From the IMG/VR virus record IMGVR_UViG_3300020450_000008: a DNA stretch of 64,000 nt. One strand, given 5' to 3'. Made by a program: the position numbers and the translations under genes. The stretch is from a virus (taxonomy: Duplodnaviria > Caudoviricetes). How positions within the stretch are numbered: the first letter of the stretch is position 1; every line of letters begins with the position of its first letter. The notes under the pieces were generated by a model, which made no database searches, had not been told where the DNA came from, and saw nothing but the letters and a program-made list of their open reading frames with translations. Of the stretch, positions 17,937 to 51,240 are shown one piece after another.

Positions 17937-18333
17937 AGAACCTTTTGAGCCTTGGAAAAACATTCCTCAAAAGACTATAAATTCATATGATATCGATGGC
18001 GTTATATACATGGGTGACTATGATGGATTAAGGCCAGGACCTGATGATATCGTAATTACTGGTAGATCTATTTGTACCGAAGAAGAAACTAAAAAAATGC
18101 TTCTTAAAAAAGGTATAACTAATCCTTTATACATGAATTTTAAAGACAAAGACTATAATAATAGAGAACAATCTGGATTTCATAAAGGTTGGACTTTATT
18201 TCATCTTGAGCAGCTGGGGTATCATATTGGAATCCATTATGATGATGATATGATTCAAATCGAAAAGATAAATGAAATGATGCCGCATATTCATTGCGTT
18301 CATGTAAAACACGAACTTGTACCAAAGGAGTAA
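17929..18333 (+). CDS. Small HAD-family phosphatase
   Basis: YDIDGVI motif I, ITGRS motif II, K, YDDD motif IV. Confidence 0.75.
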   Translation: MSREPFEPWKNIPQKTINSYDIDGVIYMGDYDGLRPGPDDIVITGRSICTEEETKKMLLKKGITNPLYMNFKDKDYNNREQSGFHKGWTLFHLEQLGYHIGIHYDDDMIQIEKINEMMPHIHCVHVKHELVPKE

Positions 18334-18335
18334 AC

Positions 18336-21590: not shown

Positions 21591-22529
21591 ATGAAAATAT
21601 TAATAACAGGACAAGCTGGATTTATAGGTTTCCATGCCGCTATTGGATTTAAAAATGATGGTTGGGAAGTACATGGTATTGATAACTTCAATGATTATTA
21701 TGATGTAAAACTGAAAAGAGATAGAGCTACTATTCTTCAAGATTTAGGAATTTCTACTATTGATGATACCATTGAAAATTTTAATAAAATAGATTTTCCA
21801 GAATATGATTTAATACTACATTTAGCCGCTTATACAAATCCCAGACACGCTTTAAAAACTCAACAACCTTATATTGATACTAATATTACAGCAACTCAAA
21901 GAATAATTGATGTAGCACAAGATAAAGGAACACCAGTTGTATACGCTTCAAGCAGTTGCGTCATGCTAGGACAACCACTTCCTTGGAATGAAACCGATAG
22001 ACCACAACATCAAAACAATCCTTATGGTTGGTCAAAGCATGTCAATGAATGCCAATTTAAACACTCAACTGTTGTAAGATCTGCTGGATTGAGATTCTTT
22101 ACGGTTTATGGTCCTTATGGAAGACCTGATATGGCACTGTTTTCTTTTACAAGATCGATAGTAAAAGATGAAGGAATAGTTTTATATAACTACGGCGATA
22201 TGAAAAGAGACTTTACTTACGTAGATGATATTATCCAAGGTATAAAAATAGTTGCAAACAAACTTATGAAAGATGAAGAAAACTATCATGAGATATATAA
22301 TATTGGGTATGGTGATCAAGTAGAGTTAATTGACTTCGTTGATCATATTGAAAAGAATCTTGGTAGAAAGACCGAAAGAAAATTAGAACCAATGCATCCT
22401 GCAGATGCAAAAGAAACTTGGTCAGATACTACAAAGCTTCAAGCACTTGGATATAAACCAACAACTCCTGTACAAATAGGAGTTGCTAAATTCGTTGAAT
22501 GGTATAAACAATATTATAATGTAAATTAA
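21591..22529 (+). CDS. NAD-dependent sugar epimerase (UDP-glucuronate 4-epimerase/WcaG-like)
   Basis: ITGQAGFIG, ASSS, YGWSK (YxxxK), RFFTVYGPYGRPDMA, RDFTYVDD. Confidence 0.9.
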   Translation: MKILITGQAGFIGFHAAIGFKNDGWEVHGIDNFNDYYDVKLKRDRATILQDLGISTIDDTIENFNKIDFPEYDLILHLAAYTNPRHALKTQQPYIDTNITATQRIIDVAQDKGTPVVYASSSCVMLGQPLPWNETDRPQHQNNPYGWSKHVNECQFKHSTVVRSAGLRFFTVYGPYGRPDMALFSFTRSIVKDEGIVLYNYGDMKRDFTYVDDIIQGIKIVANKLMKDEENYHEIYNIGYGDQVELIDFVDHIEKNLGRKTERKLEPMHPADAKETWSDTTKLQALGYKPTTPVQIGVAKFVEWYKQYYNVN

Positions 22530-31684: not shown

Positions 31685-31692
31685 TATAAATA
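31685..31692 (+). promoter_or_regulatory. T4-type late promoter TATAAATA
   Basis: Exact consensus just upstream of iscA. Confidence 0.55.
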
Positions 31693-31697
31693 TTAAT

Positions 31698-31991
31698 ATG
31701 TTTAAGTTACCAATACAGCTTACTGAAGCTGCAGAAGAATATTTAAAAGATATTGGAGACCCAAACGTTTCTCTAACAGTAAAGGGCGGGGGATGCGCTG
31801 GATTTCAATATGTCTGGGGTACAACAGACAAAGAACCCAAAGTAGCAAACTTGTGGGTTGATCCAATGGCAGAAATGTTTGTCTTTGGTTGTACAGTTGA
31901 TTATGTAAAAGAAATAGGAGGATCTTACTTGAAAATTATTAATCCAAATGCAAAAGCATCATGTGGTTGTGGGGAGAGTTTCGGTGTTTGA
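31698..31991 (+). CDS. iscA: A-type Fe-S cluster carrier (IscA/HesB)
   Basis: VKGGGCAGFQY and NPNAKASCGCGESF. Confidence 0.9.
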   Translation: MFKLPIQLTEAAEEYLKDIGDPNVSLTVKGGGCAGFQYVWGTTDKEPKVANLWVDPMAEMFVFGCTVDYVKEIGGSYLKIINPNAKASCGCGESFGV

Positions 31992-32243: not shown

Positions 32244-32645
32244 ATGGCAGAAAATATACTTACTATTCGATCCATAGAACATCCGCTTATTCCTAAGATA
32301 TATGCCGCCGATAACACTTGGTATGAAATGGAATACGTTGATGGAGAATCGGTTGGTAATATAATTAATAGTGTCGGCTATAAAGAAAGAATAGAATTAA
32401 CATTTAAACTTATTAGTGAAATATCTAGTTTGATAAGTGTGATGTTTAAACTTAAAAATGAATCTCTTCCATATCATATGTTTATTGGTAAAGATATGAG
32501 AAACTATCATAATTATATGATAGATAAAGATGGAAGAATTTTGTGTATTGATTTTGATACTTGGAGGTGGTATCCCGATAAAGAAGCTATATGGAATGCT
32601 CGCAATGCTCATTCATTTATAATTGAGAAGCTTCTTATTTCATAG
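32244..32645 (+). CDS. Small protein-kinase-like fold protein (APH/RIO/Kdo-like)
   Basis: PKIY, EMEYVDG hinge, D..NY.NYM catalytic loop, CIDFD. Confidence 0.55.
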   Translation: MAENILTIRSIEHPLIPKIYAADNTWYEMEYVDGESVGNIINSVGYKERIELTFKLISEISSLISVMFKLKNESLPYHMFIGKDMRNYHNYMIDKDGRILCIDFDTWRWYPDKEAIWNARNAHSFIIEKLLIS

Positions 32646-33003
32646 CGTCATTTAAAGAATCTAAAACACTATCAATATTTGGTTCTTGTCCATCAGGATC
32701 ATATTTACATTGATATGTTACAGGACATTGTCCTTCAACTACTAATTGATACGTATCATTAGCACCTTTATATAAACAAACTTGTTGTCCATTTTTAGCA
32801 GTTTTTCTTTTGTATCTTCGGCAAGTAATGTACTTTGGATCTTCTCTCTTACCTAAACGTTTTTCCTGCTCCCAAGTCCAATCACTAAACTTCTTGAGAA
32901 AACAAGTAAAACATTGTTTGATATTATCTGGTTGTTTTCTTTCCTCTGATGATGTGGGCGTTGCTATTAATACTAGAAAGAAAACTAATAAGACTCTAAA
33001 CAT
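32635..33003 (-). CDS. Secreted Cys-containing hypothetical protein
   Basis: Signal-like N-terminus, paired Cys; coupled to the upstream minus ORF. Confidence 0.6.
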   Translation of the reverse strand: MFRVLLVFFLVLIATPTSSEERKQPDNIKQCFTCFLKKFSDWTWEQEKRLGKREDPKYITCRRYKRKTAKNGQQVCLYKGANDTYQLVVEGQCPVTYQCKYDPDGQEPNIDSVLDSLNDAMK

Positions 33004-33478
33004 AACCTCTCGTCACAAGGTAAAGATAAAACATCCACCCGACGAATCCCACAATAATCGTTACTAAAAAAACAATTGCAATCCACTCAAAAACTTTTCT
33101 TCTTCTTTCTTCTTGGTCATATATTGCTTTTTGTCTTTTCTTTCTAATCTCACCTTCAGTTCTTAGTAGTTCTTCCCATGCACCCATGCCTCTTGTAAAC
33201 ATAATCATCTTTTTAAGTTCTTCACGCATGTCTTCAGCTTTCTTTTTAGCCATAAGCGTTTGCAAAGCCTCCTCTTCTACAGATCCTGCAGCAAAAAGTT
33301 TTTTAAATAATGGTGGTTTCTGACTTAGCTCTTCTGCTTTTTTAATGTCACTCACTGCTCCCATCCATCTACCAAGGTCACCAGCCATGCCTTCAATATC
33401 ACGACCTAACTGGAATCCTTTTTTGATAGTTGTAAATGCAGCTGAAGCAGTAGCTAATGCTGTTACTGGATCTATCAT
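32996..33478 (-). CDS. Conserved hypothetical membrane protein
   Basis: MIDPVTALATASAAF..IKKG, coiled coil, C-terminal TM; AGGAG SD. Confidence 0.65.
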   Translation of the reverse strand: MIDPVTALATASAAFTTIKKGFQLGRDIEGMAGDLGRWMGAVSDIKKAEELSQKPPLFKKLFAAGSVEEEALQTLMAKKKAEDMREELKKMIMFTRGMGAWEELLRTEGEIRKKRQKAIYDQEERRRKVFEWIAIVFLVTIIVGFVGWMFYLYLVTRGYV

Positions 33479-33542: not shown

Positions 33543-33550
33543 TATTTATA
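33543..33550 (-). promoter_or_regulatory. Late promoter for the two minus-strand genes
   Basis: TATTTATA on + equals TATAAATA on -. Confidence 0.65.
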
Positions 33551-33554
33551 AAAG

Positions 33555-33583
33555 TTTACAAATCAACTCAAATGGTTTATAAT
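33555..33583 (+). promoter_or_regulatory. Early promoter of the 33.6-42.6 kb operon
   Basis: TTTACA-N17-TATAAT. Confidence 0.75.
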
Positions 33584-33588
33584 ATAAT

Positions 33589-34143
33589 ATGAAAACTATT
33601 TTAATAGACTGTGATGGTGTCATACTGGATTGGGAAGGTGCTTTCCATGAATACATGAAATCTATGGGATATGAAAGATCTGGAACTGAAGGATACGTAG
33701 AAGAACAATATAATAAAGAGAGATCTGAAGTAATACAATACATACATGATGTAAATCATTCAGATAAAATTAAAAATTTAAATCCAATAAAAGATTCGAT
33801 TCACTATATGAAACTACTAAAAAGCATTGGATATAATTTTATTTGTATAACAAGTATAAGTAGAAATGAATCAGTTAAAAAAAATAGAATGGAAAATTTT
33901 GATAGATTGCTCGGAAAAGATTTTTTTGATGAAGTAATATTTTTAAATACGGCAGAGAAAAAAGATGACGTATTAAAAAAATACAAAGATAGTAATTATT
34001 GGTGGATAGAAAATAATTGGAAAAATGCGCAAACAGGAGCAAGATTAGGATTACGATCTATTTTAATTACACAAGAGAAAAGAAGAGACGTAATATGTCT
34101 TAAAGATTGGACTAACATATATTTGGAGATACTCTTATCATGA
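33589..34143 (+). CDS. 5'(3')-deoxyribonucleotidase-like HAD protein
   Basis: LIDCDGVILDW, CITS, K, WIEN (degenerate motif IV). Confidence 0.7.
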   Translation: MKTILIDCDGVILDWEGAFHEYMKSMGYERSGTEGYVEEQYNKERSEVIQYIHDVNHSDKIKNLNPIKDSIHYMKLLKSIGYNFICITSISRNESVKKNRMENFDRLLGKDFFDEVIFLNTAEKKDDVLKKYKDSNYWWIENNWKNAQTGARLGLRSILITQEKRRDVICLKDWTNIYLEILLS

Positions 34144-35144
34144 GTAATTTTATAGAACTAGATTTTTTAGAAAAATATGATTTAGTGGCTGAAATGAAGA
34201 GAATGGAAGACATTCTTGACTGGGGAAACACTGAGCAAATATGCATCAACACAATAAAAGAGAAACCAGATGACCATCAGTTTGGAACAGGAAGTCTTTA
34301 CATTGATTGGAAAAAAACAGAATCTGGAAATATGGAATGGGTTTTAAAAGATAATCCACCATCAGAAAGTGATTTCACTGAAACAGTTACTATGTTTAAA
34401 GAAACTCTTTTCGATAAGATACTTCAAGATTTAAAAAAATATTATGACATTGGTAGAGTTAGACTTATGAGATCATCTCCAAAGACTACTCTTACTTGGC
34501 ACACAGATGATACAATAAGACTTCACTATCCTTTAGATACCTATGAAGGTTGTTTCATGGTAATTGGAAAAGAAATACAGCATCTTAAAGCTGGAAAGTG
34601 GTATGAAACTAATACGCTTGTTCAACATACGGCATTTAACGCTAGTCAAAATAAAAGAACACACTTAGTTGTAAATGTTGTAAAAAAGAAAATACCAAAC
34701 AAAATAGTTATGAATGGACATGAAGGTATGTTAGGAAAAGTAATTTACAAAAATTTTCCATGTGATCAAATACGCTCTTCAACAGATAAAATAGTTGAGC
34801 AAGTAAAAGATTACGATATTTTCATAAATAATGTTTACTCAAAAGAAATGCAATACGAATTGATGAAAAAAGTATGGGAAGTTTGGAAGTATAATTCTAA
34901 AAAAAGAATAATAAACATTGGAAGTCGTGCCAAAGATTTTATAAAAGATGAGTATGGATTTCATAAAAATGTTTTAAGTAATTTTACAAAGCACGCTAAT
35001 TTCAATGGATCATGTAGAGTGAGTTGTATAAATTTTGGTTATCTTGATGAACTTACTGAAGATGAAATTATAGATACATTAACATACGTTTTAAGTAGTA
35101 AAATAAACATAGAAGAAGTGACGGCGTTTTCAACAAATGAATAA
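34140..35144 (+). CDS. 2OG-Fe(II)/Asp-hydroxylase-like oxygenase fused to an SDR-like Rossmann domain
   Basis: RVRLM...WHTD (HxD)...HTAFN...RTHLV, then GHEGMLG, DIFINN, IINIGS, YxxxK (YGFHK). Confidence 0.65.
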   Translation: MSNFIELDFLEKYDLVAEMKRMEDILDWGNTEQICINTIKEKPDDHQFGTGSLYIDWKKTESGNMEWVLKDNPPSESDFTETVTMFKETLFDKILQDLKKYYDIGRVRLMRSSPKTTLTWHTDDTIRLHYPLDTYEGCFMVIGKEIQHLKAGKWYETNTLVQHTAFNASQNKRTHLVVNVVKKKIPNKIVMNGHEGMLGKVIYKNFPCDQIRSSTDKIVEQVKDYDIFINNVYSKEMQYELMKKVWEVWKYNSKKRIINIGSRAKDFIKDEYGFHKNVLSNFTKHANFNGSCRVSCINFGYLDELTEDEIIDTLTYVLSSKINIEEVTAFSTNE

Positions 35145-35826
35145 TATAATAACTATCAAATGGGGCACTAAATATGGCCCTGAATATCCAAATAGACTTT
35201 ATGAAGAATGCAAACAAAAATGTTCTTTTCACTTTAATTTTTATTGTGTAACAGATAATCCTGAAGGATTAAATGAAGATATAATATCTTTAGAAATGCC
35301 TAAACACAGTAATTTAAATTATAATGATTATATAGAAGATCATCTAAATTATAAAACGCAAATGTGGGATAGACCTAAACTTTATCTCTTTTCTGACTTT
35401 GATTTTAGAGGAACAAATATATTTTTAGATCTAGACTCAGTAATAAATGAAGATATATCATATTTGACAACTTTACCAAATGACAAACCGTGGTGTATAG
35501 ACATGTGGTGGAAAGTAGGTTACAAAGAAAATTGGGATAAATTATGGGGAACTAGAGCAAACACAAGTGTGATGGTATGGAAAAATGATCAATGTAAAGA
35601 GATAACAGAAAGAATACTATCAAATCCAGAGCTTTTTGATAAGTATGCTACGATAGATTGCTTTATAGGTTATGAAATGCTTGATTACGAAAACTATCAA
35701 AAATCATTTTTTAATTTTATACCACCATTTGTTTATATACTTGGAAAGGAATATCAAGCCGGATATAAAATATCGTTATTTAGTAACAGTAAAATGGGAA
35801 GGCACACTGACGAACCTGGAATATGA
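35137..35826 (+). CDS. GT-A glycosyltransferase-like protein
   Basis: IKWGTKYGPEYPNRL, CVTD, FLDLD (DxD), NTSVMVW. Confidence 0.7.
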   Translation: MNNIITIKWGTKYGPEYPNRLYEECKQKCSFHFNFYCVTDNPEGLNEDIISLEMPKHSNLNYNDYIEDHLNYKTQMWDRPKLYLFSDFDFRGTNIFLDLDSVINEDISYLTTLPNDKPWCIDMWWKVGYKENWDKLWGTRANTSVMVWKNDQCKEITERILSNPELFDKYATIDCFIGYEMLDYENYQKSFFNFIPPFVYILGKEYQAGYKISLFSNSKMGRHTDEPGI

Positions 35827-36359
35827 TTATAGAAGTTATTGAAGATAGACATTTTAAGATGTTAGAATATTTTTGTCAAAGGTGTAAAATACTAGGATTT
35901 GAAAATAATTCTAGTTTTGAAGCCATGAAACTTTTATGGTGCAAAAGTTGGGGAGAATACTGGTGTGCTATTGATGATAATGAAATAGTTGCAGTTGGTG
36001 GGTGCCATCCTTTACCTGAAGTATCTCCAACAGCTTGGAGAATATTATTTAGAGGTTGTGAACTTCCAAATAAATACACGTTTAAAGGTCTAGGTAAAGG
36101 AGATTGGAATAGTATAACTCAAAGAGAATTCATTCCGCTTATGATAAAATACTGCCCATCTTCTGAAATCTTTTTAACAACACACAGAGGTGGTGTACAT
36201 GAAAAGAACCATAAACTCATGACATTACTTTCTAAACAAAAGAATCCTTATTTAGTATATCATACGACAATGGAATTATATAATACTGAACAGACAATAT
36301 GGAGAGTAAAAGTTCCTACATATTTTGAAAGAAGAGGAAAACTAAAAAATGTTAGATAA
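35823..36359 (+). CDS. GNAT-like hypothetical protein
   Basis: WCAIDDNEIVAVGGC beta pattern followed by RILFRG. Confidence 0.4.
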   Translation: MIIEVIEDRHFKMLEYFCQRCKILGFENNSSFEAMKLLWCKSWGEYWCAIDDNEIVAVGGCHPLPEVSPTAWRILFRGCELPNKYTFKGLGKGDWNSITQREFIPLMIKYCPSSEIFLTTHRGGVHEKNHKLMTLLSKQKNPYLVYHTTMELYNTEQTIWRVKVPTYFERRGKLKNVR

Positions 36360-37233
36360 ATTAACAGCTTGGCATAATGGTGAGTATAAACCACTTGGAA
36401 ATGTAAAGATTAGTCCACTTGATTTTGGGTTTATACATTCGGATGCAACATATGATGTTATAAGAGTTAATGAAAGAAAAATATTATTTTGGCAGTATCA
36501 TGTAGAAAGATATCACAAAGCTTGTCATTATTATGGATTCGATCAAATAGATTACGAAGATATTTTAGAAATATCATCTAATTTAATTATTAAAAATAAT
36601 TTAAAAAATGCATTTATATGGATATGTAATTGGAGAGGAACACCAGAAAGTGGTAGTCCTAGAGATATTTGTAATGCGCCCCAGCATCAATTGATTTATG
36701 TAAAGCCGTATTATCCCATTAACGACAACAAACCTATTAGCTTGATATCTTGGTACGAGAATAAAAGATCCGATGCTGCATATCCACAAATATATAAAAA
36801 CTTTTCATGGATAGAATTTACGCGTGCACAATTAGACGTGCAACAAAAAGCACAAGTTGATTCAGCTGTATTACTAAGTCCGGAAGGTTACATAACTGAA
36901 GGTCCTGGTTTTGGAGTTTGTTTTGTAAAAGATAATAAAGTAATAACACCTAAGAGAAATGTTTTAAAAAGTGTTACTATTGATATAGTTGGAAACTTAT
37001 GTAAAGATTTAAATGGTGAGTTTGAAAGAAAAGATATAACATTAGAAGAAGCTCATTCAGCTGATGAATGTTTTATATGTAGTACAAGTGGAGGTATAAC
37101 ACCAGTAAATAAATTTGATCATGTTTGGTTAAAACATAAATTAACTATTATTCTCATGAGAGAATTTGCTGAGTTTATAAAAGGTGGATATAAGCAAGCC
37201 CACGGTTATTATCATCTTATTAAAGAAAGGTAA
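36349..37233 (+). CDS. PLP fold-type IV aminotransferase
   Basis: GFIHSDATYDV, catalytic Lys in YKNFSW, ITEGPGFG, L..VT, ADECFICSTSGGITPV. Confidence 0.88.
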   Translation: MLDKLTAWHNGEYKPLGNVKISPLDFGFIHSDATYDVIRVNERKILFWQYHVERYHKACHYYGFDQIDYEDILEISSNLIIKNNLKNAFIWICNWRGTPESGSPRDICNAPQHQLIYVKPYYPINDNKPISLISWYENKRSDAAYPQIYKNFSWIEFTRAQLDVQQKAQVDSAVLLSPEGYITEGPGFGVCFVKDNKVITPKRNVLKSVTIDIVGNLCKDLNGEFERKDITLEEAHSADECFICSTSGGITPVNKFDHVWLKHKLTIILMREFAEFIKGGYKQAHGYYHLIKER

Positions 37234-37237
37234 GTAA

Positions 37238-38245
37238 ATGAAAAAATTTTTAGATTATAACGATGTTTTAATAATTCCAAAGGTTAGTGATGAACCACTT
37301 GCAAGAAAAGATATTAATATAAACATAGATACTGGATATGTTCCTATTGTTATATCTAATATGTTAAGCACTGGAACTTATAAGATTGCAGATCTTATGT
37401 CAAAAGAACAAGTATTAACTTTCATACACAAAGAATATTCCGCAGAAGAGCATATACAAAATTTAAAGAAAATAAGATTTCCTGAATTTGTTGGGATAAC
37501 AAGTGGAATACAATCATGGGATATAGAAAAAACAATAGATGTTTACAGTCAAATTCCTGTTGGATTTATTAATGTTGACATAGCAAATGTATATGCAAAT
37601 ATGGAAGGTATGGTGAAAACAATAAAGACATATCGTGATGCCTTTCCTGATGCAAAAATTGTGGCGGGAAACATTTGTAGTCCTGAACCAGTAAGAGATC
37701 TAATAGGCGCTGGCGCAAATATAATAAAAATAGGTGTGGGTCCAGGAGCCGCGTGTAAAACTCGATCAGAGGTTGGTGTAGGAGTTCCACAATTCTCTGC
37801 CGTTCAAAGTGTAGTTGATTGTGCAAAATTATTTGGTGCAATGACTATTGCTGATGGTGGATGTGTTAACAGTGGAGACGTGTGTAAAGCCATTGGTGCT
37901 GGAGCTGATATTGTAATGATTGCTGGAATGGTTTCACATTCTGAAGAATGCGATAACGTTATTGAAGTTGATGGAAAAAAATATATTAACTTTTATGGAC
38001 TTGGAAGTAATGCGCAATATAAAAAGTTTACACCTCAAGAAGTTGAATACAGACCTAATGAAGGCCGTGATCTTTTGATTCCAGTAAAGGGAAGTATATT
38101 TGAAGTAATAAATCAAATCAAAGGAGCTTTAAGAAGTGTCTGTACTTATGTTGGTACAGATGATATATCAAAGCTTAAAAAACATGTCGAATTTGTAGAA
38201 GTAAATAATACAATTAATAAGAGCTTAGAAAAATATGAGAGATGA
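37238..38245 (+). CDS. Second, divergent GMP reductase/IMPDH-family protein
   Basis: LDYNDVLIIP, IVISNM, VDIAN, KIGVGPGAACKTR, IADGGC, SVCTYVG. Confidence 0.85.
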   Translation: MKKFLDYNDVLIIPKVSDEPLARKDININIDTGYVPIVISNMLSTGTYKIADLMSKEQVLTFIHKEYSAEEHIQNLKKIRFPEFVGITSGIQSWDIEKTIDVYSQIPVGFINVDIANVYANMEGMVKTIKTYRDAFPDAKIVAGNICSPEPVRDLIGAGANIIKIGVGPGAACKTRSEVGVGVPQFSAVQSVVDCAKLFGAMTIADGGCVNSGDVCKAIGAGADIVMIAGMVSHSEECDNVIEVDGKKYINFYGLGSNAQYKKFTPQEVEYRPNEGRDLLIPVKGSIFEVINQIKGALRSVCTYVGTDDISKLKKHVEFVEVNNTINKSLEKYER

Positions 38246-39053
38246 TCTCATCATTGCTACTGTTGTTGCCATTGACAGCGAAAGAAGGCAACGAAATTAT
38301 GATTTTCTAAAAAGATATTACGTTGACAATAATCTACCACATGTATTTTTAGAATATTCTGATAGTAGTTACTTACACTTACAAAAAATTTATAATGATT
38401 TTTATAAAAGCAACAAAGAAAAAATACTATTTAAACATGATGTTGACTGTATATTAAATGTTGAATCTATTAAGAAAGGTTATGATCTTTGCCGTGCTGA
38501 TAAAAATAATTTTGTATATCCATATGATCATGTTTCCTTCATTGATCCTACAGAATATAAATCAAACTTTGATGAATACCAACAAGTAGAATCTTTTAAT
38601 AGAAAGAATGATGGATTAGAAGTAGAGTCAAGTTACTGGCCAGATTGGTTAACTTTAGAAATGATGGCAAACTCTATCATGGGTGAACAAAGACATTTGC
38701 CAGCCCTTTCACATACTAATTTTAAAGATATGAATTATCAGAGTCCTTTAGGATATTGTTATATGTTTAATTTTGAAGGATACAACAGAGGTGGTTTGGA
38801 TAATGAATATCTACTTGATTTTAATTTTGATGATTTAGAAAGGTATCATAGACTAAGAACCTTAGGATATAATATAATTCAATTACCTGGAAAAATATAT
38901 CACATGGATCACAGTTTTAATAAAAATGGTACAAGAGTTAGAACTAAAGATTATATGATTCAAAACATATTTGAATATTTAAAAATAGCAAATTTAAATA
39001 AAAAAGAATTACAACTTTACATAGAGACATGGCCATGGACATTAAAGAATTAA
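38235..39053 (+). CDS. Glycosyltransferase (GT7/GT2-like)
   Basis: HDVD, GG.DN.Y....FDD.E...R..LG, IYHMDH. Confidence 0.65.
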   Translation: MRDDLIIATVVAIDSERRQRNYDFLKRYYVDNNLPHVFLEYSDSSYLHLQKIYNDFYKSNKEKILFKHDVDCILNVESIKKGYDLCRADKNNFVYPYDHVSFIDPTEYKSNFDEYQQVESFNRKNDGLEVESSYWPDWLTLEMMANSIMGEQRHLPALSHTNFKDMNYQSPLGYCYMFNFEGYNRGGLDNEYLLDFNFDDLERYHRLRTLGYNIIQLPGKIYHMDHSFNKNGTRVRTKDYMIQNIFEYLKIANLNKKELQLYIETWPWTLKN

Positions 39054-39631
39054 ATATAGGAGTCTCAGATTACAATTCGACCGAGGGTTTTACTAATATA
39101 GGATTAGATATATCGCATTCTCCACCAACAAAATTAAATCATGACGTAACAAATAAGATTCCAATTGATGATTCTTCTATTGAGTTCATATACACGAGCC
39201 ATTTAGTAGAGCATTTAAAAATAGAAGACTTTTATTTTTTTATTAAGGATTGTTATAGACTACTTAAAGAAGGAGGTATCTTACGTATTGTAACTCCTGA
39301 CCTGAAAGAATGGGTGAAGTCCTATTTAAACAATGATCAAGAGCTCTTTAAACTACATCAGCAAATTATGATAGAAAATAAAGGAAGACCTTGGAGTTTA
39401 ATTGATCATGAATATGTACAATTACCAGCAGATTATTTCATGACGATTTGTCATAACTGGAATCATAAATGGCTGTTTGATTATGAAAGTATTAGTTATC
39501 ACTTAAAAAAATGTGGCTTTAAAAATATAATAAATACTGGTTACAGGAATAGTGGTTATAAAGATATTGAAAGAGTAGAATTTAATCCAGAATTTTATAA
39601 ACCATCTTTGTACATAGAGGTTAAAAAGTAA
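39029..39631 (+). CDS. Class I SAM-dependent methyltransferase
   Basis: LNIG, HDVT..IP..D.S...IYTSHLVEHL, RLLKEGGILRIVTPD. Confidence 0.8.
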   Translation: MAMDIKELNIGVSDYNSTEGFTNIGLDISHSPPTKLNHDVTNKIPIDDSSIEFIYTSHLVEHLKIEDFYFFIKDCYRLLKEGGILRIVTPDLKEWVKSYLNNDQELFKLHQQIMIENKGRPWSLIDHEYVQLPADYFMTICHNWNHKWLFDYESISYHLKKCGFKNIINTGYRNSGYKDIERVEFNPEFYKPSLYIEVKK

Positions 39632-41182
39632 ATGAAAAAAATAGCTTTGTGCCAAATACCAGGAATGGATGTTAGGGCACCGAGTCAAGGTATAGCAGTC
39701 TTAAAAGCAATAGCTTTATCAAAAAGTTTTGACGCTAAATGTTTTGACTTAAACATATCAGTGTGGAATGATTTAGTGGATGAAGGACTAGGTTACCTTT
39801 GGGCCGATTGGAGCATTGAATTTGCTTATGCATTAATGAATGATAAAGAGTTTCATGAGTTGCAAAGTACATCATATGATGAGGAAACAGCAAATAGAGT
39901 TTTAAGCTGCATGCATTTTCATATTGACAGTATGATATATGAATATGACCCAGATGTTATTGGATTCAGCTTATTTAGTATAGTGCAAGAAAATACAGCT
40001 AGGATCGTTATAGACTACATAAAAGAAAATTATAAAGATATTGAAATTATAATAGGTGGACCAGCTTTACGGCACTATCATGAAGAAAGTTTACCTAAAG
40101 ATATTTTAGATAAAGTCGATGATTATTTTATTGGTGATGCTGAAGAAAGTTTTGTTAATTACTTAGATGGAAAAAAAGACTTTGGTGGATTAAATAATAT
40201 CAATGTAAATATGCATTTTGATAGAGATATATGGCCATCACCTGATTATAGAGATTTTGATTTTAGCCTATATCCTTCTAAATGGAGAGAACCACATGTA
40301 AGATCATCTGATGAAGGAACAGTTTATGTTACTGGATCAAAAGGTTGCGTAAGGGCATGTGAGTTCTGTGATGTACATAAAATATGGCCAAAGTTTTATC
40401 AAAAACAAGTTAACACAGTATTAAGAGATATTAAAAGCATAAGAGAGTATTTTAAATTTAGAAATGTATTCTTTACAGACAGTCTTATAAATGGAAGTAA
40501 TAAATTTATTAAAGATTTATCTCAAGGTATAATAGACGAATTTGGAGAAAAACCGTTTAGTTGGAGTGGACAGTGGATATGTAAAAGTAAAAAAAGTTTT
40601 ACTGAAGAGTATTTTGAAATAGCATCAAGAGCTGGATTGAATCAAATAATAGTTGGAATTGAAAGTGGCAGTGAAAAAGTTAGATGGGAAATGAATAAAA
40701 AGTTTTATAATGAAGATATTTACTTTACATTAGAAATGTGTAGAAAGTACAATATTCTTTTTATCCCTTTAATGATTGCTGGTTATCCTACAGAAACTGA
40801 TGATGACTTTAAACAGACATTGGATTTAGCAAAGAAATGGATAGAATATAGAGATGTTGTAAGACCTACATGTATTAATATGATGATGCTACTTCCAGGA
40901 ACAGATGTTACCATAGATCATGATAAATATCAATTGGCAAATATAACTTATGCAGAAGTCGAAGCTGGATATACTCCCTTAGATCAAAATTGGTCTTGTG
41001 GAGATAATGACTATGAAAAAAGAATTGAAAGATTTTACGAGTATCAATATCAGATTAAAAAAGCAGAAATGGGATTAGGTCATGTAAAAAGAAAGACTTT
41101 AAAAAGAGATTATCTTAATATTGCGAAGATACCAAATCCAGAATTAATACACAAGATTGATTATGTAAATGGCATCTATTAG
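39632..41182 (+). CDS. B12-binding radical SAM protein
   Basis: N-terminal B12 domain (DVIGFS, IIIGGP), GSKGCVRACEFC, GIESGS, GYPTET. Confidence 0.85.
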   Translation: MKKIALCQIPGMDVRAPSQGIAVLKAIALSKSFDAKCFDLNISVWNDLVDEGLGYLWADWSIEFAYALMNDKEFHELQSTSYDEETANRVLSCMHFHIDSMIYEYDPDVIGFSLFSIVQENTARIVIDYIKENYKDIEIIIGGPALRHYHEESLPKDILDKVDDYFIGDAEESFVNYLDGKKDFGGLNNINVNMHFDRDIWPSPDYRDFDFSLYPSKWREPHVRSSDEGTVYVTGSKGCVRACEFCDVHKIWPKFYQKQVNTVLRDIKSIREYFKFRNVFFTDSLINGSNKFIKDLSQGIIDEFGEKPFSWSGQWICKSKKSFTEEYFEIASRAGLNQIIVGIESGSEKVRWEMNKKFYNEDIYFTLEMCRKYNILFIPLMIAGYPTETDDDFKQTLDLAKKWIEYRDVVRPTCINMMMLLPGTDVTIDHDKYQLANITYAEVEAGYTPLDQNWSCGDNDYEKRIERFYEYQYQIKKAEMGLGHVKRKTLKRDYLNIAKIPNPELIHKIDYVNGIY

Positions 41183-41705
41183 TTGGAATAAAGAAGTTGA
41201 TATTATAGATGATAATCTATATTACATGAATGAACTCATGCAGGATCCGGTAGCTGAGGAGACACTTAATAAATGGAAAGATTGGGTAGAACACAATTTA
41301 AATAAAATTTTGTCTCAATACATGATTCCAGAAGGAATGATTATCCAAGCCGGAGTATGGAATGGAGATTTTTATTCGGTATTAAAAGATATTTTTGGTT
41401 GGGAAAGATGTATAGGATTTGATATAGTTAAATATACTGAAGACGACTCAGTAATATATAGTGATTTTAGAGATTTAAAAGATGAGCATCAGCTTCCTTG
41501 TGCTTTATTTTATAATGGAATGGGAAACTGGCTTTATAATAAAAAAAGTAAAACGTCAGGTTTAGAGTACGCGAAAAGAAATTTGGTAAAAGGTGGGTTA
41601 TATTTAGACTCTATTCATATGGATACAACAATACTTAAAGATGTTGAAGGATTAAATTACATGGCTACTTACGACGACAGGTTAATAATTTTAAGGAAAG
41701 AATAA
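41169..41705 (+). CDS. Methyltransferase-like hypothetical protein
   Basis: IQAGVWNG, IGFD, L..GG.Y Rossmann-like pattern. Confidence 0.45.
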   Translation: MASISWNKEVDIIDDNLYYMNELMQDPVAEETLNKWKDWVEHNLNKILSQYMIPEGMIIQAGVWNGDFYSVLKDIFGWERCIGFDIVKYTEDDSVIYSDFRDLKDEHQLPCALFYNGMGNWLYNKKSKTSGLEYAKRNLVKGGLYLDSIHMDTTILKDVEGLNYMATYDDRLIILRKE

Positions 41706-42412
41706 TGAATTTATGGAAAGATTCAATAATTAATGGAGTTACGGTTACTTCTAGTGGAACTACTGGAACTCCTAAAAAGATTTTTAGAAGTCCACAAAAT
41801 ATTGCTGAAGTTTCTAAAGCGGCCAACGAGGCTCAGAAAATAACAAAGGACAGTAGAATACTTACTGTAACAAGTCTAGATCATGCTGGTGGGTTATTAG
41901 CTCAGACAATACCTGCATATATAATGGGTGCAGTGGTTCACGCTACAACATTTAAACCTTTCAGTTTTTTAAAAGAATTTAGAAATTTTACTCATACGTT
42001 TTTGACCCCAACACAGATGGGCGCATTAATAAAAACAAAAACATTTAAAGACTATGATTTAAGTGGTAAAAGAATATTAGGAGGTAGTGATCCTATCCCT
42101 TGGGATTATATCGAAGCTTTTGTGAATCAAGGTGCTCTTGTTCAGCCTAACTGGGGAATGAGTGAAATAGGACCTATTACAATAAATTGTGAAATTGACT
42201 CAATAGAAAAATTTAACTATTATAAGGAACGTGCGCCGCAAACTCCACACGATCCAACCATTTTAGGAGACACCTTTTACTGCCAGAAAAAAATAATTGA
42301 TGGCGAATTAGTCGTGCGGGGGCCTTTGTGTTATAAATTAGGTTGGCTTGAAACCGGAGACATAGTAGAAGAAGTAGATAACATTTTATATTTTCATCGT
42401 AGAAAGGAATAA
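41705..42412 (+). CDS. Short AMP-binding (ANL/acyl-CoA ligase) protein
   Basis: TSSGTTGTPK P-loop, H.GG, WGMSEIGP, GELVVRG, W..TGD. Confidence 0.8.
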   Translation: MNLWKDSIINGVTVTSSGTTGTPKKIFRSPQNIAEVSKAANEAQKITKDSRILTVTSLDHAGGLLAQTIPAYIMGAVVHATTFKPFSFLKEFRNFTHTFLTPTQMGALIKTKTFKDYDLSGKRILGGSDPIPWDYIEAFVNQGALVQPNWGMSEIGPITINCEIDSIEKFNYYKERAPQTPHDPTILGDTFYCQKKIIDGELVVRGPLCYKLGWLETGDIVEEVDNILYFHRRKE

Positions 42413-42413
42413 C

Positions 42414-42635
42414 ATGAATACTGGACCATTAACTAGTGCATTTGATGACGACATCGAAGGTGTAGTGCTAAAAGAGTTTATAGTTTACAGAGTTGTAGAT
42501 GGCAATCTTACAAGAGAAAAATTTGTTAGAAAATATCATGGTGATGGTGACTATACCGATCACAGTGAATCCACACCGCTATCTCCAATAGGCTTTACGC
42601 TTGAAGGAAAGATTCCTGGTGCCACAGGAAAATAA
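42414..42635 (+). CDS. Hypothetical protein
   Basis: ORF closing the operon. Confidence 0.5.
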   Translation: MNTGPLTSAFDDDIEGVVLKEFIVYRVVDGNLTREKFVRKYHGDGDYTDHSESTPLSPIGFTLEGKIPGATGK

Positions 42636-47346: not shown

Positions 47347-48165
47347 ATGGCTATCATGGCTCCCAAAAATTTTAGAGGATCTGCACTTGATCCGGTTTTT
47401 ATTAAAAGAGCAAGAATTCAAACATCTTTCAATGTTGAAGATGCTGATTTAACAAGTCTTAAATTTAAAAAAGAGATGCAGTTTCTTTATGATTTTCAGT
47501 TTTTTCCAGGCTGGTTTGAAAAGAATACACTATTAACTGGAAACAACGTGAATATAAATGCTTTCAATAGATTAGCTACTAAATTAAAGACTGCTAATCC
47601 TAGTGGTTATAAAAATCTTGTTCAGTTTACAGGACAGTACTTAGGACCTGGTGAAGTCCTACTTTATGTTCTACATGATAATCTTAAACTAGCTGGAGGA
47701 GCAACAGGCGGCGATGCTAGAATTGACTTCGCTAAAAATAATGCTGTTGTGGGACAAAACGTATATGAAATCAAAGGAGCATTAATAAGAAAAATTAGCA
47801 ATGAGTATCAGGGGTTTTCTCTTGGAGGTACTGTCCCTATGGAAAAAATTATAGGAAGAGTTTTAAGTTTAAAAGAAGAACTTGGAATATCGCAATCAAC
47901 GGCAAAGAGTGATGTTACCTTTAATGAAATTGAAGAAATGACTAGGCAGAGACCCGATGAAATGCGCAACCTGCAAAAAGAGTTTGGTGAACTTGCTAGA
48001 AAGTATTACTTTTCAAAATATAAAATTATGTTTATGCGTGCTCAAAAGTCTGATAATAATAAGCCAGATTATGGTCACATATTAGATATAAAAGACGTAC
48101 AGGCAAATGAAGTAAGAATGCAAACATATACAAGAAAAAATATGAAGGTACTAGTAAAAGTATGA
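47347..48165 (+). CDS. Hypothetical late protein
   Basis: ORF; GPGE...DA...YEIK pattern weakly recalls PD-(D/E)xK. Confidence 0.5.
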   Translation: MAIMAPKNFRGSALDPVFIKRARIQTSFNVEDADLTSLKFKKEMQFLYDFQFFPGWFEKNTLLTGNNVNINAFNRLATKLKTANPSGYKNLVQFTGQYLGPGEVLLYVLHDNLKLAGGATGGDARIDFAKNNAVVGQNVYEIKGALIRKISNEYQGFSLGGTVPMEKIIGRVLSLKEELGISQSTAKSDVTFNEIEEMTRQRPDEMRNLQKEFGELARKYYFSKYKIMFMRAQKSDNNKPDYGHILDIKDVQANEVRMQTYTRKNMKVLVKV

Positions 48166-49391
48166 ACTTTGCAGATTACATAGATCTTAACGAAGCCAAA
48201 AATACTCATATGACTCATATTGAGGATAAAGTAATTTATGGTGGAGTAAATGGAACTAGAGAAGCAATATTTGCATTGAGAGATATGAGGGATATGCTTT
48301 CTGGTGTAAAGGAAGGTAGTGTTAGCGTAAAGTGGGACGGCGCACCTGCAATATTCTGTGGAATAGATCCTAGTGACAATAAATTTTTTGTAGCTAAAAA
48401 AGGTATATTTAATAAAAATCCTAAAGTATATAAATCAAATTCTGATATAGATGCAGATTCAGAAGGTGCATTAAATAAAAAGTTAAAGCTTGCTTTAAAG
48501 TATTTGCCTGATCTTGGAATAAAAGGTGTCATACAAGGAGACTTTTTATTTGGTCCTGGCGATGTATCGAAACAGAAAATAAAAGGAAACAGATATTTAA
48601 CATTCCATCCTAATACAATAGTATATGCTATACCTGATGGAACTCCTTCATCACTTGAAATCAAAAGAGCAAAGATAGGTATTGTATGGCATACGTCTTA
48701 TAGTGGATCATCTTTTGAATCAATGAGCGCGTCTTATGGAGTTGATGTAAAGGCTTTAAAGAAATCTCCAAATGTTTGGTCTCAAGATGCAATGTTAAAA
48801 AGTGTGATGGGTGCCACTATGACTGCCAAAGATACTGAATTTGTAAATAAAAACTTAAGTGAAATAGGAAGAATATTCAACAGAATAGCAGGAAGTACTT
48901 TAAGACAACTTGAAGGTAATAAAGATTTAGCCCAGCATATAGAACAACATTCAAATACTTTTGTAAGAGCTGGTCAGGTTCCTCCAGATCCTAAAAGAAG
49001 AGTTGCAGCTTTGATTAAATTTATAGACAATAAGTATAAGAAAGAAATGGATTCAAGAAAAACAGAAAGAGGTAAAGCGTTACAAAGAAAAAAATTAGAT
49101 GCTTTACTCGATTTCTTTTCACCACGCAACAGAGCAAGTTTAGAACAGCTTTTTGACCTTCAAAGATTAATTGTACTTGTAAAATTAAAACTTATAAATA
49201 TACTAAATCGACTTAATAAATTAGATACGTTTGTTAAGACGAGGAATGGTTACAAAACAACAGGGCAAGAAGGCTACGTAGCAATAGACAGACTTGGTGG
49301 TGATGCGGTAAAGATTGTTGATAGATTAGAATTTTCATACAACAACTTTTCGCCAAATGTATTAAAGGGATGGGACAAAGCCGGGAGATAA
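48162..49391 (+). CDS. ATP-dependent ligase-like (KxDG nucleotidyltransferase fold) conserved phage protein
   Basis: SVKWDGAP motif I, IQGDFLF motif III-like, EGYVA motif IV, AVKIV motif V. Confidence 0.55.
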   Translation: MNFADYIDLNEAKNTHMTHIEDKVIYGGVNGTREAIFALRDMRDMLSGVKEGSVSVKWDGAPAIFCGIDPSDNKFFVAKKGIFNKNPKVYKSNSDIDADSEGALNKKLKLALKYLPDLGIKGVIQGDFLFGPGDVSKQKIKGNRYLTFHPNTIVYAIPDGTPSSLEIKRAKIGIVWHTSYSGSSFESMSASYGVDVKALKKSPNVWSQDAMLKSVMGATMTAKDTEFVNKNLSEIGRIFNRIAGSTLRQLEGNKDLAQHIEQHSNTFVRAGQVPPDPKRRVAALIKFIDNKYKKEMDSRKTERGKALQRKKLDALLDFFSPRNRASLEQLFDLQRLIVLVKLKLINILNRLNKLDTFVKTRNGYKTTGQEGYVAIDRLGGDAVKIVDRLEFSYNNFSPNVLKGWDKAGR

Positions 49392-49393
49392 AA

Positions 49394-49936
49394 ATGAGTT
49401 TACCTAGAAACTTAAGTTTTAAAGATTTAATGCTAAAAGAACCAGTCGACTTTAAAGCGGCTGGAGAAGATGAGTACATAAAGTACAGAAGACATCGCAG
49501 AAGAGCTCTTGATATGGAAGAAGCAACTCAAGAACTCGATGAAATCCTCTCAATCATGAATAGAAAAAGATCAGAAATGACTCAACCAGAGTTAGAAGAA
49601 GCTTTGTCTATGATACAAAGACTCAAAAAAGCAAGAGCACTTAGAAGATTTAAAGCAAAAATAAAAAGAGGAGCGGCTTTAGCAAAAAGAAGATTTGCTA
49701 ATATTGCAACTCTTACAAAGAGAGCTCAAAGAGCGGCTCGTAATCTTATAGTTACACGAATAACTAAAGGCGTAAGGAAGGGTGAGCTACCATTTGCCAG
49801 AAGAGCAGAAATAGAAAAAAGAATGAGTTCCCCTGCGCTAAAAAATAGAATTGCAACTATCGCTAAAAGACTTATTCCTATAATGAGAAAAAAAGAAATG
49901 GCGAGAAAGAAAAGTCAGGCGGCAAATAGAGCATGA
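49394..49936 (+). CDS. Basic hypothetical late protein
   Basis: Arg/Lys-rich helical C-terminus; likely start 49394. Confidence 0.55.
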   Translation: MSLPRNLSFKDLMLKEPVDFKAAGEDEYIKYRRHRRRALDMEEATQELDEILSIMNRKRSEMTQPELEEALSMIQRLKKARALRRFKAKIKRGAALAKRRFANIATLTKRAQRAARNLIVTRITKGVRKGELPFARRAEIEKRMSSPALKNRIATIAKRLIPIMRKKEMARKKSQAANRA

Positions 49937-51240
49937 TAAATTCATTTAAACAATATTTAGTTGAAGAAGAGAAGTCAGTTTATTTTACCTTTGGTAGAAT
50001 GAACCCTCCCACTATTGGTCATGGAAAACTTATTGGCAAGTTAGCGGCCAAAGCTGGTAGAAATCCATATAGAATATATGTATCACAAAGTCAAGATTCT
50101 AAAAAGAATCCTTTATCGTATGTTGATAAAGTAAAATTTGCAAGAAAAATGTTTAAAAGACATTCAAGATTTATTATAATGGATAAAAAGATAAAATCAG
50201 TAATGGATGTTGGAACCAAATTATATGATGAAGGATTTAGGTCTATCAACATGGTAGTAGGAGATGATAGAATAAATGAATTTAAGGCTTTACTAAAAAC
50301 CTATAATGGTAAAAAAAGTCGACATGGTTTTTATAATTTTAAAGAAATCAATGTTATTTCTGCTGGAGAAAGAGATCCAGATTCAGAAGGAGCTGAAGGA
50401 GCTTCAGCTACAAAACAGAGAACAGCAGCACAAAATAAAGATTTTGTATCATTTGCTCAGGGTCTTCCAAAAGATATGTCAAATAAAGATGCCAAAGGAT
50501 TATTTAATGCGGTGAGGTTAGGTATGGGATTGAAAGAAGAAACTGAATTTAAAACTAAAATAAAACTTAATACAGTATCTGAAGTACGAGAAAACTTTGT
50601 TGCCGGTGATATATTTCATATTGGTGATAGAGTTGTAATTAAAGAGACTGATGAAGTAGCTATCATATCACATAGAGGATCTAACTATGTAATATTAGAA
50701 AAAAGTGATAATACTATAGTTCGTAAATGGATTGATACGATAGAGCCACTTGAAGAGTATTACGAAGTTGGAACAGCAGATATGGTTAATCATTATGCAA
50801 AAGGAACACCAGGTCAATATCCTCCATCTTTTAAAGTCGAAACAACAAGATCAAGTGGACCGCAGGATCCGGATATAAAAGATAGACCAGGATCACAACC
50901 AAAGGGTTATCACAAGGGAATGTCTAAGACAACAAAAATTGCAAGAGACAGACAATTTAAGAAACAAACAGACATGCCATCAAATATGGCTAAAGATGCT
51001 CCAGGTGATAAAGAAGCTCGTAAAAAACCTATGCCTAAATCTAAGCATACAAAAGAATATGAAAGAAGATTTGGTAAGAGTAATGAAGATGCTGTAGTAA
51101 AAGCTAAAGAAGTAATAGCAAAGAAAAAAGAAAGATTAGATACACAATCTGATAGATTGTTAGCTCGAGCAAGAATTGTAAGGGCTAATAGAAAAATGGC
51201 AAAAGCCAGAATGAAAAATATGCAAATGAAAGGGAACTAG
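49933..51240 (+). CDS. Cytidyltransferase-like (HxGH) nucleotidyltransferase with C-terminal extensions
   Basis: FTFGRMNPPTIGH, KNPL, VVGDDR, SAGERDPD, SATKQR. Confidence 0.8.
   Translation: MINSFKQYLVEEEKSVYFTFGRMNPPTIGHGKLIGKLAAKAGRNPYRIYVSQSQDSKKNPLSYVDKVKFARKMFKRHSRFIIMDKKIKSVMDVGTKLYDEGFRSINMVVGDDRINEFKALLKTYNGKKSRHGFYNFKEINVISAGERDPDSEGAEGASATKQRTAAQNKDFVSFAQGLPKDMSNKDAKGLFNAVRLGMGLKEETEFKTKIKLNTVSEVRENFVAGDIFHIGDRVVIKETDEVAIISHRGSNYVILEKSDNTIVRKWIDTIEPLEEYYEVGTADMVNHYAKGTPGQYPPSFKVETTRSSGPQDPDIKDRPGSQPKGYHKGMSKTTKIARDRQFKKQTDMPSNMAKDAPGDKEARKKPMPKSKHTKEYERRFGKSNEDAVVKAKEVIAKKKERLDTQSDRLLARARIVRANRKMAKARMKNMQMKGN

Follow-up and report, generated by a model that had tools for sequence, protein, structure and literature searches.

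The window analysed here is the whole 64-kb stretch (64,000 nucleotides, nt) of the IMG/VR virus record IMGVR_UViG_3300020450_000008, in which 11 plus-strand open reading frames (ORFs), designated g1-g11, fill positions 33589-42412. Comparison with related loci showed that this operon is the expanded form of a module found widely among uncultured marine T4-like phages and made up of an AspH-like hydroxylase, a GNAT acyltransferase, a DUF6356-like protein, an amine transaminase, often a GMP-reductase (GMPR) paralogue, and a mini-ANL. The first-pass annotation had described eleven tightly coupled genes that form one coherent cluster. The coupling was borne out, with junctions of -25 to +4 nt and overlaps at 8 of the 10, and the coherence was supported by the recurrence of the genes in order across independent lineages, around a nested stable core. 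With a probability that we place somewhat short of one half, the operon encodes a cytoplasmic line in which a ketone is converted to an amine and acylated, with methylation and glycosylation following, on a nucleotide-linked substrate.

The genes of the operon and the matches or models from which they were assigned (E values unless otherwise stated) are as follows.

33589-34143, plus strand: g1, HAD phosphatase of the 5'(3')-deoxyribonucleotidase type, 184 amino acids (aa), DCDGV motif at residues 7-11
34140-35144, plus strand: g2 (whole gene), hydroxylase-SDR fusion
34140-34694, plus strand: g2 N-terminal domain, Fe(II)/2-oxoglutarate hydroxylase of the AspH/LpxO/Cpz10 family (PF05118, Asp_Arg_Hydrox, 1.1e-11)
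34695-35144, plus strand: g2 C-terminal domain, compact (~150 aa) classical SDR-like oxidoreductase, assigned from motifs
35137-35826, plus strand: g3, GT-A fold glycosyltransferase, retaining (GT6/GT8-like), from an AlphaFold2 (AF2) model with pLDDT 84
35823-36359, plus strand: g4, GNAT-fold acyltransferase, from an AF2 model with pLDDT 90
36349-37233, plus strand: g5, fold-type IV pyridoxal phosphate enzyme, nearest to (R)-selective amine transaminases (PF01063, Aminotran_4, 5e-35)
37238-38245, plus strand: g6, divergent GMPR paralogue, full-length match to human GMPR2 (1e-65)
38235-39053, plus strand: g7, probable GT-A/GT2-like glycosyltransferase (phrog_15655, 5e-22)
39029-39631, plus strand: g8, class I methyltransferase-like protein (PF08241, Methyltransf_11, 2e-6)
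39632-41182, plus strand: g9, cobalamin-binding (class B) radical SAM enzyme (PF04055, 1.2e-17; PF02310, 5e-9)
41169-41705, plus strand: g10, class I methyltransferase-fold protein (PF12692, 3.4e-4, weak)
41705-42412, plus strand: g11, mini-ANL, 235 aa, adenylate-forming core (PF00501, 4.7e-18)

IMG/VR was scanned with a mini-ANL alignment, which yielded 66 loci; these were dereplicated at ~90% g11 identity, and their ORFs were searched iteratively with jackhmmer. Lineage counts cover the 38 dereplicated lineages in which 6 kb or more lies upstream of the mini-ANL, and single loci are cited by L numbers. The gene most faithfully linked to g11 was the GNAT g4 (35 of 38 lineages), followed by an 85-aa DUF6356-like membrane protein (33), the amine transaminase g5 (26), the AspH-like hydroxylase (23), the GMPR paralogue g6 (20), the mini-SDR (12), and the B12-type radical SAM enzyme (11). 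Lower counts were obtained for g3 (9), g10 (7, the full-form lineages), g1 (4), g7 (3), and g8 (2). The order of g4, the DUF6356-like gene, and g5 was fixed, and g6 usually lay directly upstream of g11. In the smallest form of the module (L045), five genes were present, namely, those for the hydroxylase, GNAT, DUF6356-like protein, transaminase, and mini-ANL. Three IMG/VR contigs of one related phage held all 11 genes with their order kept at 43-78% amino-acid identity, together with another gene for a B12-type radical SAM enzyme and an ORF of 85 aa; gene order was retained in four lineages other than that of the window, at 43-78% identity. A conservation analysis across viromes had been proposed in the first-pass annotation, and its outcome is that gene content is not freely shuffled among relatives, because the core is stable and nested across the 38 lineages.

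Around this core, glycosyltransferases, methyltransferases, radical SAM enzymes, and sulfotransferases varied between lineages. In metagenome contigs found via g3, the g7-g9 segment was swapped for Sulfotransfer_2, Methyltransf_24, short radical SAM/SPASM, or Caps_synth glycosyltransferase genes. This variation, together with the miscellaneous genes collected by marine myophage hypervariable regions (PMC7029224), would suit a view in which unrelated auxiliary metabolic genes are merely co-located. However, the order and adjacency of g4, the DUF6356-like gene, and g5, and likewise of g6 and g11, were kept at only 40-60% protein identity, start and stop codons overlapped, and the mini-ANL and GNAT occurred together in nearly every lineage (35/38). 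Such a chance assembly was already disfavoured, and we consider it hardly credible. As a separate observation, four more radical SAM genes and a Methyltransf_3/24 gene were found at 871-5834 of L009, which belongs to the lineage of L003, directly upstream of the HAD gene; the cluster of the L003/L009 lineage therefore amounts to ~20 genes with six radical SAM enzymes.

The DUF6356-like gene is absent from the window. It was located at 6537-6794 in L003, 11245-11499 in L005, and 4462-4725 in L010, and in 30 other lineages. Its 85-aa product has one hydrophobic helix and a weak DUF6356 match, and was the best-conserved protein of the module, with up to 88% identity between phages whose other module proteins share 44-57%. 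The 85-aa ORF was considered as a carrier protein and rejected, because of the hydrophobic helix, the weak DUF6356 match, and the lack of a carrier motif.

The mini-ANL g11 matched PF00501 with 65.6 bits (cutoff 29.9) over profile positions 170-378 of 384 only. Its P-loop SSGTTGTPK at residues 16-24 (A3), NWGMSE at 149-154 (A5), and TGD at 217-219 (A7) were invariant or nearly so in 37 sequences. The protein lacks the N-terminal substrate-pocket subdomain and the C-terminal lid with the A10 Lys, and it stops at the GR/RR A8 hinge. Homologues across 36 lineages were all 223-258 aa long. In a 1.8-billion-representative library, 38 representatives matched g11 at 1e-30 or better, and most of the complete ones had 225-265 aa, with a few of 300-345 aa. 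No close longer or fused form was found in a 5.8-billion-protein index, which returned only distant full-length acyl-CoA synthetases. As judged from these sequence comparisons, the mini-ANL is a real short family. Its nearest solved relatives were fatty-acid CoA ligases and luciferases, at only ~1e-8, and a homologue on a 259-kb gammaproteobacterial contig (L082) was solitary, with an uninformative context.

Neighbouring genes were also considered as sources of the missing ANL parts. The gene g10 was rejected as the N-terminal subdomain, because it has class I methyltransferase motifs, occurs in only 7 of the 38 lineages, and in L003 and L010 has a radical SAM gene between itself and g11. The following ORF, which ends in a GK motif, was considered as the lid.

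42414-42635, plus strand: 73-aa ORF directly 3' of g11, no family match

Its only homologues were in L042 and L045, ~9 kb from the module and on the opposite strand; it was rejected as unlinked to the module in relatives and is probably outside the system.

The transaminase g5 matched amine transaminases in the PDB (6fte at 5.5e-33; 3wwh, 4ce5, and 7wud at 1e-27 to 1e-30; overall range 1e-33 to 1e-26), whereas the matches of canonical branched-chain and D-amino-acid aminotransferases (BCAT/DAAT) were much weaker, at 1e-12 to 1e-10 (1i1k, 1e-12; 3daa, 6e-10). The motifs HSDATYDV, YKNFSW, and TEGPGFG were identified, and YKNFSW, with the catalytic Lys, aligned with VKNLQW. By these matches and motifs, g5 appears nearest to transaminases that take ketones without an alpha-carboxylate. 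It shares with the (R)-selective amine transaminases (6fte, 3wwh, and 4ce5) the catalytic Lys context KN..W and the EG.GF motif; unlike the solved enzymes, it is phage-encoded and embedded in an operon, and its identity to them is modest.

In the alignment of g6 with human GMPR2 (PDB 2a7r and 2bzn), the catalytic Cys, Thr, and Glu were aligned, and these residues are kept across the 20-member g6 clade. The scores of g6 were under the equivalog cutoffs (NF003470, 274.5 vs 397; TIGR01305, 261 vs 492). A canonical guaC, with 35% identity to g6, is encoded at 466-1521 in the nucleotide-metabolism region of the same window (PF00478, 6e-70; GPGSVCTTR-type active site); the phage therefore has two GMPR-family genes. 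The 20 sequences of the clade have their own invariant base-binding-loop residues, with YGLGS in place of YGMSS and AGMVS in place of GGMLA. Thus, g6 resembles GuaC and GMPR2 as an IMPDH/GMPR barrel without a CBS insert and with the Cys and the Thr/Glu dyad, but differs from them by its sub-cutoff scores and clade-specific loop changes. In L039, the GMPR paralogue at 8930-9966 consisted of two separate ORFs (213 and 110 aa), which could reflect a frameshift, an assembly error, or decay.

The hydroxylase domain of g2 has an HxD...H motif, with WHTDD at residues 120-124 and the distal His in VQHTAF, and its nearest solved structure is the caprazamycin beta-hydroxylase Cpz10 (7v4f, 5e-6). The SDR domain gave no Pfam match of its own and a weak PDB match (E 0.4), and it is ~100 aa below the usual SDR size; its TGxxxGxG-like Gly loop, NN, S, YxxxK, and PG-like motif were invariant or conserved across 7 relatives. 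The two halves of g2 are separate genes in L010 and L032, with a hydroxylase of 188 aa and an SDR of 159-162 aa. For g4, all 50 of the 50 best PDB matches to the model were GNATs, and its profile matched the GNAT 3t9y at 5.5e-5. The phosphatase g1 matched phrog_420 (1.6e-28) and the 5'-3' deoxyribonucleotidase phrog_2643 (6e-8), and its PDB matches were only mitochondrial and cytosolic 5'(3')-deoxyribonucleotidases, with a weak E of 0.04.

A Foldseek search with the g3 model gave BoGT6a, alpha-1,3-GalT, LgtC, and glycogenin as top matches (E ~1e-7, TM 0.5-0.6). This protein has no Pfam match, and its DxD motif (D98 and D100) was invariant across 31 aligned sequences. For g7, which likewise has no Pfam match itself, three of the four members of its alignment matched PF00535 at ~1e-3, and D69 and D71 of its DVD motif were invariant. 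Homologues of g7 lie in cyanophage sugar islands, including that of Synechococcus phage S-SCSM1, where they are annotated as glycosyltransferases. A g7 profile search of PDB sequences gave chance matches only, and hhalign of g7 against g3 was negative; a GT-A/GT2-like glycosyltransferase is thus the probable, weakly supported assignment.

The class B radical SAM enzyme g9 scored 36.4 bits for PF02310 (cutoff 32.1) and 65.1 bits for PF04055, its CxxxCxxC motif is CVRACEFC at residues 239-246, and it was 78% identical to the copy in L001-L003. Its best NCBIfam match, to the PhpK-type P-methyltransferase family TIGR04479, reached 97.8 bits, far under the cutoff of 600. In both lineages with g8, the glycine loop of this protein was degenerate (LNIGVS instead of GxG), and g8 may bind S-adenosylmethionine other than in the usual manner. 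A g8-g9 read-through fusion was considered, as the two share one frame with TAA alone between them, and rejected because the frames differ in L003. The Atlas leads for g10 point toward class I methyltransferases, and it carries the motifs QAGVWNG, GFDIV, and VKGGLYL. In summary, nearly all family calls of the first-pass annotation were confirmed, those for g7, g8, and g10 on weak scores.

Sugar-related genes elsewhere in the window include those for a UDP-glucose-dehydrogenase-like protein, a phosphomannomutase, and the following epimerase.

21591-22529, plus strand: UDP-glucuronate-4-epimerase-like SDR, detached accessory gene (PF01370, 1e-37)

Its best PDB match was 5u4q (1e-66), with the BcUGAepi entries (6zl6 and related) at 3e-37, and MoeE5 was also matched. 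In the window, this gene sits 11 kb from the operon; in 6 of 6 full-form relatives, a homologue adjoins the operon, either upstream of g2 or convergent after g11. The product of the UDP-glucose/GDP-mannose dehydrogenase-like ORF at 2135-3254 is just 250 aa long, with the N-terminal and central domains, and an ORF of 126 aa comes next and overlaps it; this gene may be split or frameshifted.

On the favoured reading, the substrate would be linked to a nucleotide, as an NDP-sugar or uronic acid or as a purine nucleotide. The mini-SDR or the 2-oxoglutarate hydroxylase would oxidise an alcohol or C-H, and g5 would convert the resulting ketone to an (R)-amine. The GNAT g4 would then N-acylate or amide-link the amine, with the mini-ANL g11 providing an adenylate-activated carboxylate; a candidate for this carboxylate is a uronic acid made by the UDP-glucose dehydrogenase and UDP-glucuronate-epimerase-like enzymes of the phage. 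Methylation of the unit might follow through g8, g10, and the B12 radical SAM enzyme g9, the GT-A enzymes g3 and g7 could hand it on or extend it, and g6 and g1 would process the purine nucleotide part. We infer this order of steps as well as the substrates and the acceptor, which may be a virion protein, an envelope precursor, or a free metabolite.

TM-like segments were absent from all 11 proteins, and no flippase, polymerase, or polyprenyl-phosphate/lipid-linked glycosyltransferase was found near the operon; these results indicate that the chemistry is cytoplasmic. The accessory genes (Sulfotransfer_2, Caps_synth glycosyltransferase, methyltransferases, and radical SAM/SPASM) are of a glycan-tailoring kind, which speaks for the tailoring line. 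The epimerase next to the operon in relatives, the two GT-A enzymes, the sulfotransferases and capsule-type glycosyltransferase of variant forms, and the UDP-glucose-dehydrogenase-like protein and phosphomannomutase of the window support a sugar or glycan substrate, and the GMPR paralogue and the deoxyribonucleotidase-like HAD phosphatase point toward a purine nucleotide. The product is most likely an amine-bearing, acylated, methylated sugar or nucleotide conjugate. The amino-sugar, nucleoside, and acyl-conjugate classes named in the first-pass annotation remain the right shortlist.

Several points weigh against this reading. Sugar aminotransferases are normally of fold type I, not fold type IV, and no role in glycan tailoring is known for a GMP-reductase paralogue or for a deoxyribonucleotidase-like HAD. 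In many lineages, the core is without glycosyltransferases, and glycosylation is therefore not essential to its function. A self-contained surface-glycan system would need the flippase, polymerase, and polyprenyl-phosphate glycosyltransferase that are missing nearby. The chemistry of the mini-ANL is uncertain because the lid Lys, on which adenylation by canonical ANL enzymes depends, is missing from it, and the roles given to g7, g8, and g10 follow from weak scores.

The main rival reading, which we judge unlikely, is that the operon produces a small molecule of the purine aminonucleoside type in free form, with a logic like that of puromycin/A201A or toyocamycin, which would act as an antimetabolite or signal in the infected cell. 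The puromycin cluster encodes an oxidoreductase, an aminotransferase, a monophosphatase, methyltransferases, an amide ligase, and a GNAT, and the toyocamycin cluster encodes the GMPR homologue ToyE and the HAD phosphatase ToyI. By this route, the GMPR paralogue would re-base a purine nucleotide, which would then undergo oxidation, transamination, dephosphorylation by the HAD enzyme, methylation, and ANL/GNAT acylation or ligation, with optional glycosylation. The retention of the GMPR catalytic residues in g6, in a conserved clade of its own and with a canonical guaC elsewhere in the window, is consistent with this route, as are the PDB matches of g1 solely to 5'(3')-deoxyribonucleotidases, the origin of the nearest solved relative of the g2 hydroxylase in a nucleoside-antibiotic pathway, and the amine-transaminase type of g5. 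However, the GMPR paralogue is missing in 15 of the 35 GNAT-bearing lineages and the HAD gene in most, no exporter or self-resistance gene was seen, and the sulfotransferase, capsule-type glycosyltransferase, and uronate-epimerase neighbours suit glycans better. In a still bolder version, a neofunctionalised GMPR, the (R)-amine transaminase, the adenylating enzyme that lacks a lid, and the B12 radical SAM methylase would build a diffusible antimetabolite, resembling a purine aminonucleoside or an aminoglycoside, in the infected cell; this seems to us rather improbable. If true, the antimetabolite would be a small-molecule weapon of a lytic virus, serving host shutdown, defence block, or exclusion of competing phages.

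The window comes from an uncultured T4-like myophage of marine origin. Its T4-type DNA polymerase (phrog_262) was nearest to that of phage C48C1 (54% identity), followed by cyanomyophages (~47%), and UvsX, a DnaB-type helicase, and ThyX are also encoded. A megablast search with the operon found no match in 50,697 phage records. Near-identical DNA was present in marine metagenomes from several studies, 2014 to 2025, and a 5.1-kb contig from a 2025 marine sample of a different study spans 37373-42498 with 5 differences. In the metatranscriptome library of one source sample, a few contigs of 150-260 nt mapped to g4, to g6, and to the gene downstream; such contigs do not in themselves show transcription. 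At 48162-51240, a DUF6267 protein (1.9e-100) adjoins a cytidylyltransferase-like protein, and the two match the two halves of phrog_455 (764 positions), which suggests that the pair is fused in other phages.

The sole sizeable intergenic gap upstream of the operon holds the following site, which ends 5 nt before the ATG of g1.

33555-33583, plus strand: sigma-70-like promoter candidate TTTACA-17-TATAAT, best match, 11 of 12 positions

Promoter-like matches in the operon region were rarer than in shuffles (53 vs 71), and the single early promoter proposed in the first-pass annotation is unproven, this site being a candidate only. The T4-late motif TATAAATA was not found on the plus strand between 33000 and 42700. 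A minus-strand TATAAATA lies at 33543-33550 in the same gap, facing the divergent genes at 32996-33478 and 32635-33003; the gap may therefore hold divergent promoters of different classes. Another TATAAATA directly precedes the gene for an A-type Fe-S carrier (PF01521, IscA/HesB-like, 97 aa) at 31685-31991, 1.6 kb upstream of the radical SAM-containing operon.

A further alternative is that the operon enzymes decorate a phage structural protein such as a tail fibre after translation, much as in collagen or in ribosomally synthesised and post-translationally modified peptides (RiPPs); the reactions would be Asp/Asn hydroxylation, glycosylation, methylation, and radical SAM chemistry. Proteins are the classical substrates of AspH-family hydroxylases, the module has short SPASM and class B radical SAM enzymes as recurrent neighbours, and the operon lies 10 kb upstream of a gene for a fibre-like protein of 1537 aa. 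In L062, an Mtd_N tropism-determinant-like protein is encoded just upstream of the module, with one 215-aa ORF without a Pfam match between it and the GNAT gene. On the other side, late expression is expected of structural genes, whereas the operon strand carries no T4-late motif; the transaminase, GMPR paralogue, nucleotidase-like HAD, and mini-ANL have no obvious role on a protein, and no conserved precursor peptide is present within the operon of the window. We therefore regard protein decoration as improbable.

Between ~13 and 22 kb, the window also encodes a DNA-modification cassette with a thymidylate-synthase-like (TS-like) gene, a dCMP deaminase, an HMUDK_hel-domain protein, and a C5-methylase-like gene. 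The protein at 18294-19406 matched the 5-hmdU DNA kinase helical domain (PF18723, 4e-9), and on this match, the modified base could be a hydroxymethyl-uracil derivative instead of, or besides, hydroxymethylcytosine (hmC). A C-terminal tail of the TLEEFFG, TLESFMQ, or QLDEFMV type was common to the DNA polymerase (6747-9278) and the proteins at 18294-19406, 19403-20389, and 20386-21582, and this clamp-type tail was on none of g1-g11.

The operon could be imagined to supply this hydroxymethyl-pyrimidine hypermodification cassette with a donor in the form of an unusual amine or sugar; amines are attached in known thymidine hypermodifications, and all the cassette genes named above are in the window. 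In relatives, the epimerase at the cassette end and a homologue of the radical SAM gene at 14370-15287 are joined to the operon, which indicates that the cassette and operon regions have exchanged genes, and in L028, only 5 kb separate the operon from the TS-like and deaminase genes. Against such a donor role, the operon proteins lack the TLEEFFG-type tail, and among five large, incomplete module-bearing records, an HMUDK-like gene was found in none and a TS-like gene in one, with the DNA polymerase region present in four. Furthermore, no MIPS-like or HMUDK-like gene occurred within 10 kb of the module in the 66 loci. A donor role is accordingly very improbable in our view, and weak evidence points to an operon independent of the cassette. 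The separation from the hmC cluster claimed in the first-pass annotation is true physically, with the 11-kb gap, and is supported at the level of function by the tails and the HMUDK-like counts; it is qualified by the joining of the epimerase and radical SAM homologues to the operon in relatives.

Marine T4-like phages are among the most abundant ocean viruses, and their hypervariable enzyme islands are usually dismissed as lipopolysaccharide (LPS)-related, with no defined unit. The results here give a recurring, ordered module with three unusual enzymes: a lid-less adenylating core of 235 aa, a phage (R)-amine-transaminase-like enzyme, and a second, divergent GMP reductase. Its study could reveal a decoration of the virion or cell surface that controls host range, or a phage-made metabolite; its genes are clonable targets, and the transaminase and mini-ANL are of biocatalytic interest. 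Literature searches on DUF6356 function, phage amine transaminases, and this gene combination found nothing relevant.

The operon has an enzyme logic that resembles that of the aminonucleoside and deazapurine antibiotic pathways (the puromycin pur cluster and toyocamycin), where a GMPR homologue and a HAD phosphatase (ToyE/ToyI) act on a modified purine nucleotide. It differs from them in its fold-type IV transaminase, truncated ANL, glycosyltransferases, and B12 radical SAM enzyme, and in belonging to a lytic phage without export or resistance genes. The serinol/ethanolamine glucuronamide capsule pathway of Campylobacter jejuni HS:2 would share with the present system a UDP-glucose dehydrogenase as the source of a uronic acid, an amine-making transaminase, a HAD phosphatase, and an ATP-dependent amide ligase. 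However, the HS:2 pathway uses an ATP-grasp ligase and a fold-type I transaminase, whereas the operon has a mini-ANL and a fold-type IV enzyme.

The host recognition clusters and sugar islands of marine T4-like phages likewise contain glycosyltransferases, methyltransferases, radical SAM enzymes, and 2-oxoglutarate/AspH-type oxygenases, with content that varies between relatives. Hypervariable islands with glycosyltransferases and radical SAM cassettes have been described in pelagimyophages and cyanomyophages (Zaragoza-Solas et al. 2020, PMC7029224); in that work, an AspH-type hydroxylase is listed among the core genes, and the sugar genes are read as serving O-chain modification. The operon lies between replication and fibre genes, without a late motif on its strand; VrlC and the neck gene gp14, between which the host recognition cluster lies together with tail-fibre genes, were not identified in the window. 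Unlike the islands of PMC7029224, it has a defined and ordered core (hydroxylase, GNAT, DUF6356-like protein, transaminase, GMPR paralogue, and mini-ANL) that is not described there. Taken together, these comparisons place it among the tailoring islands already known from marine myophages, as a real and conserved operon of many enzymes with a core that is unusually well defined.

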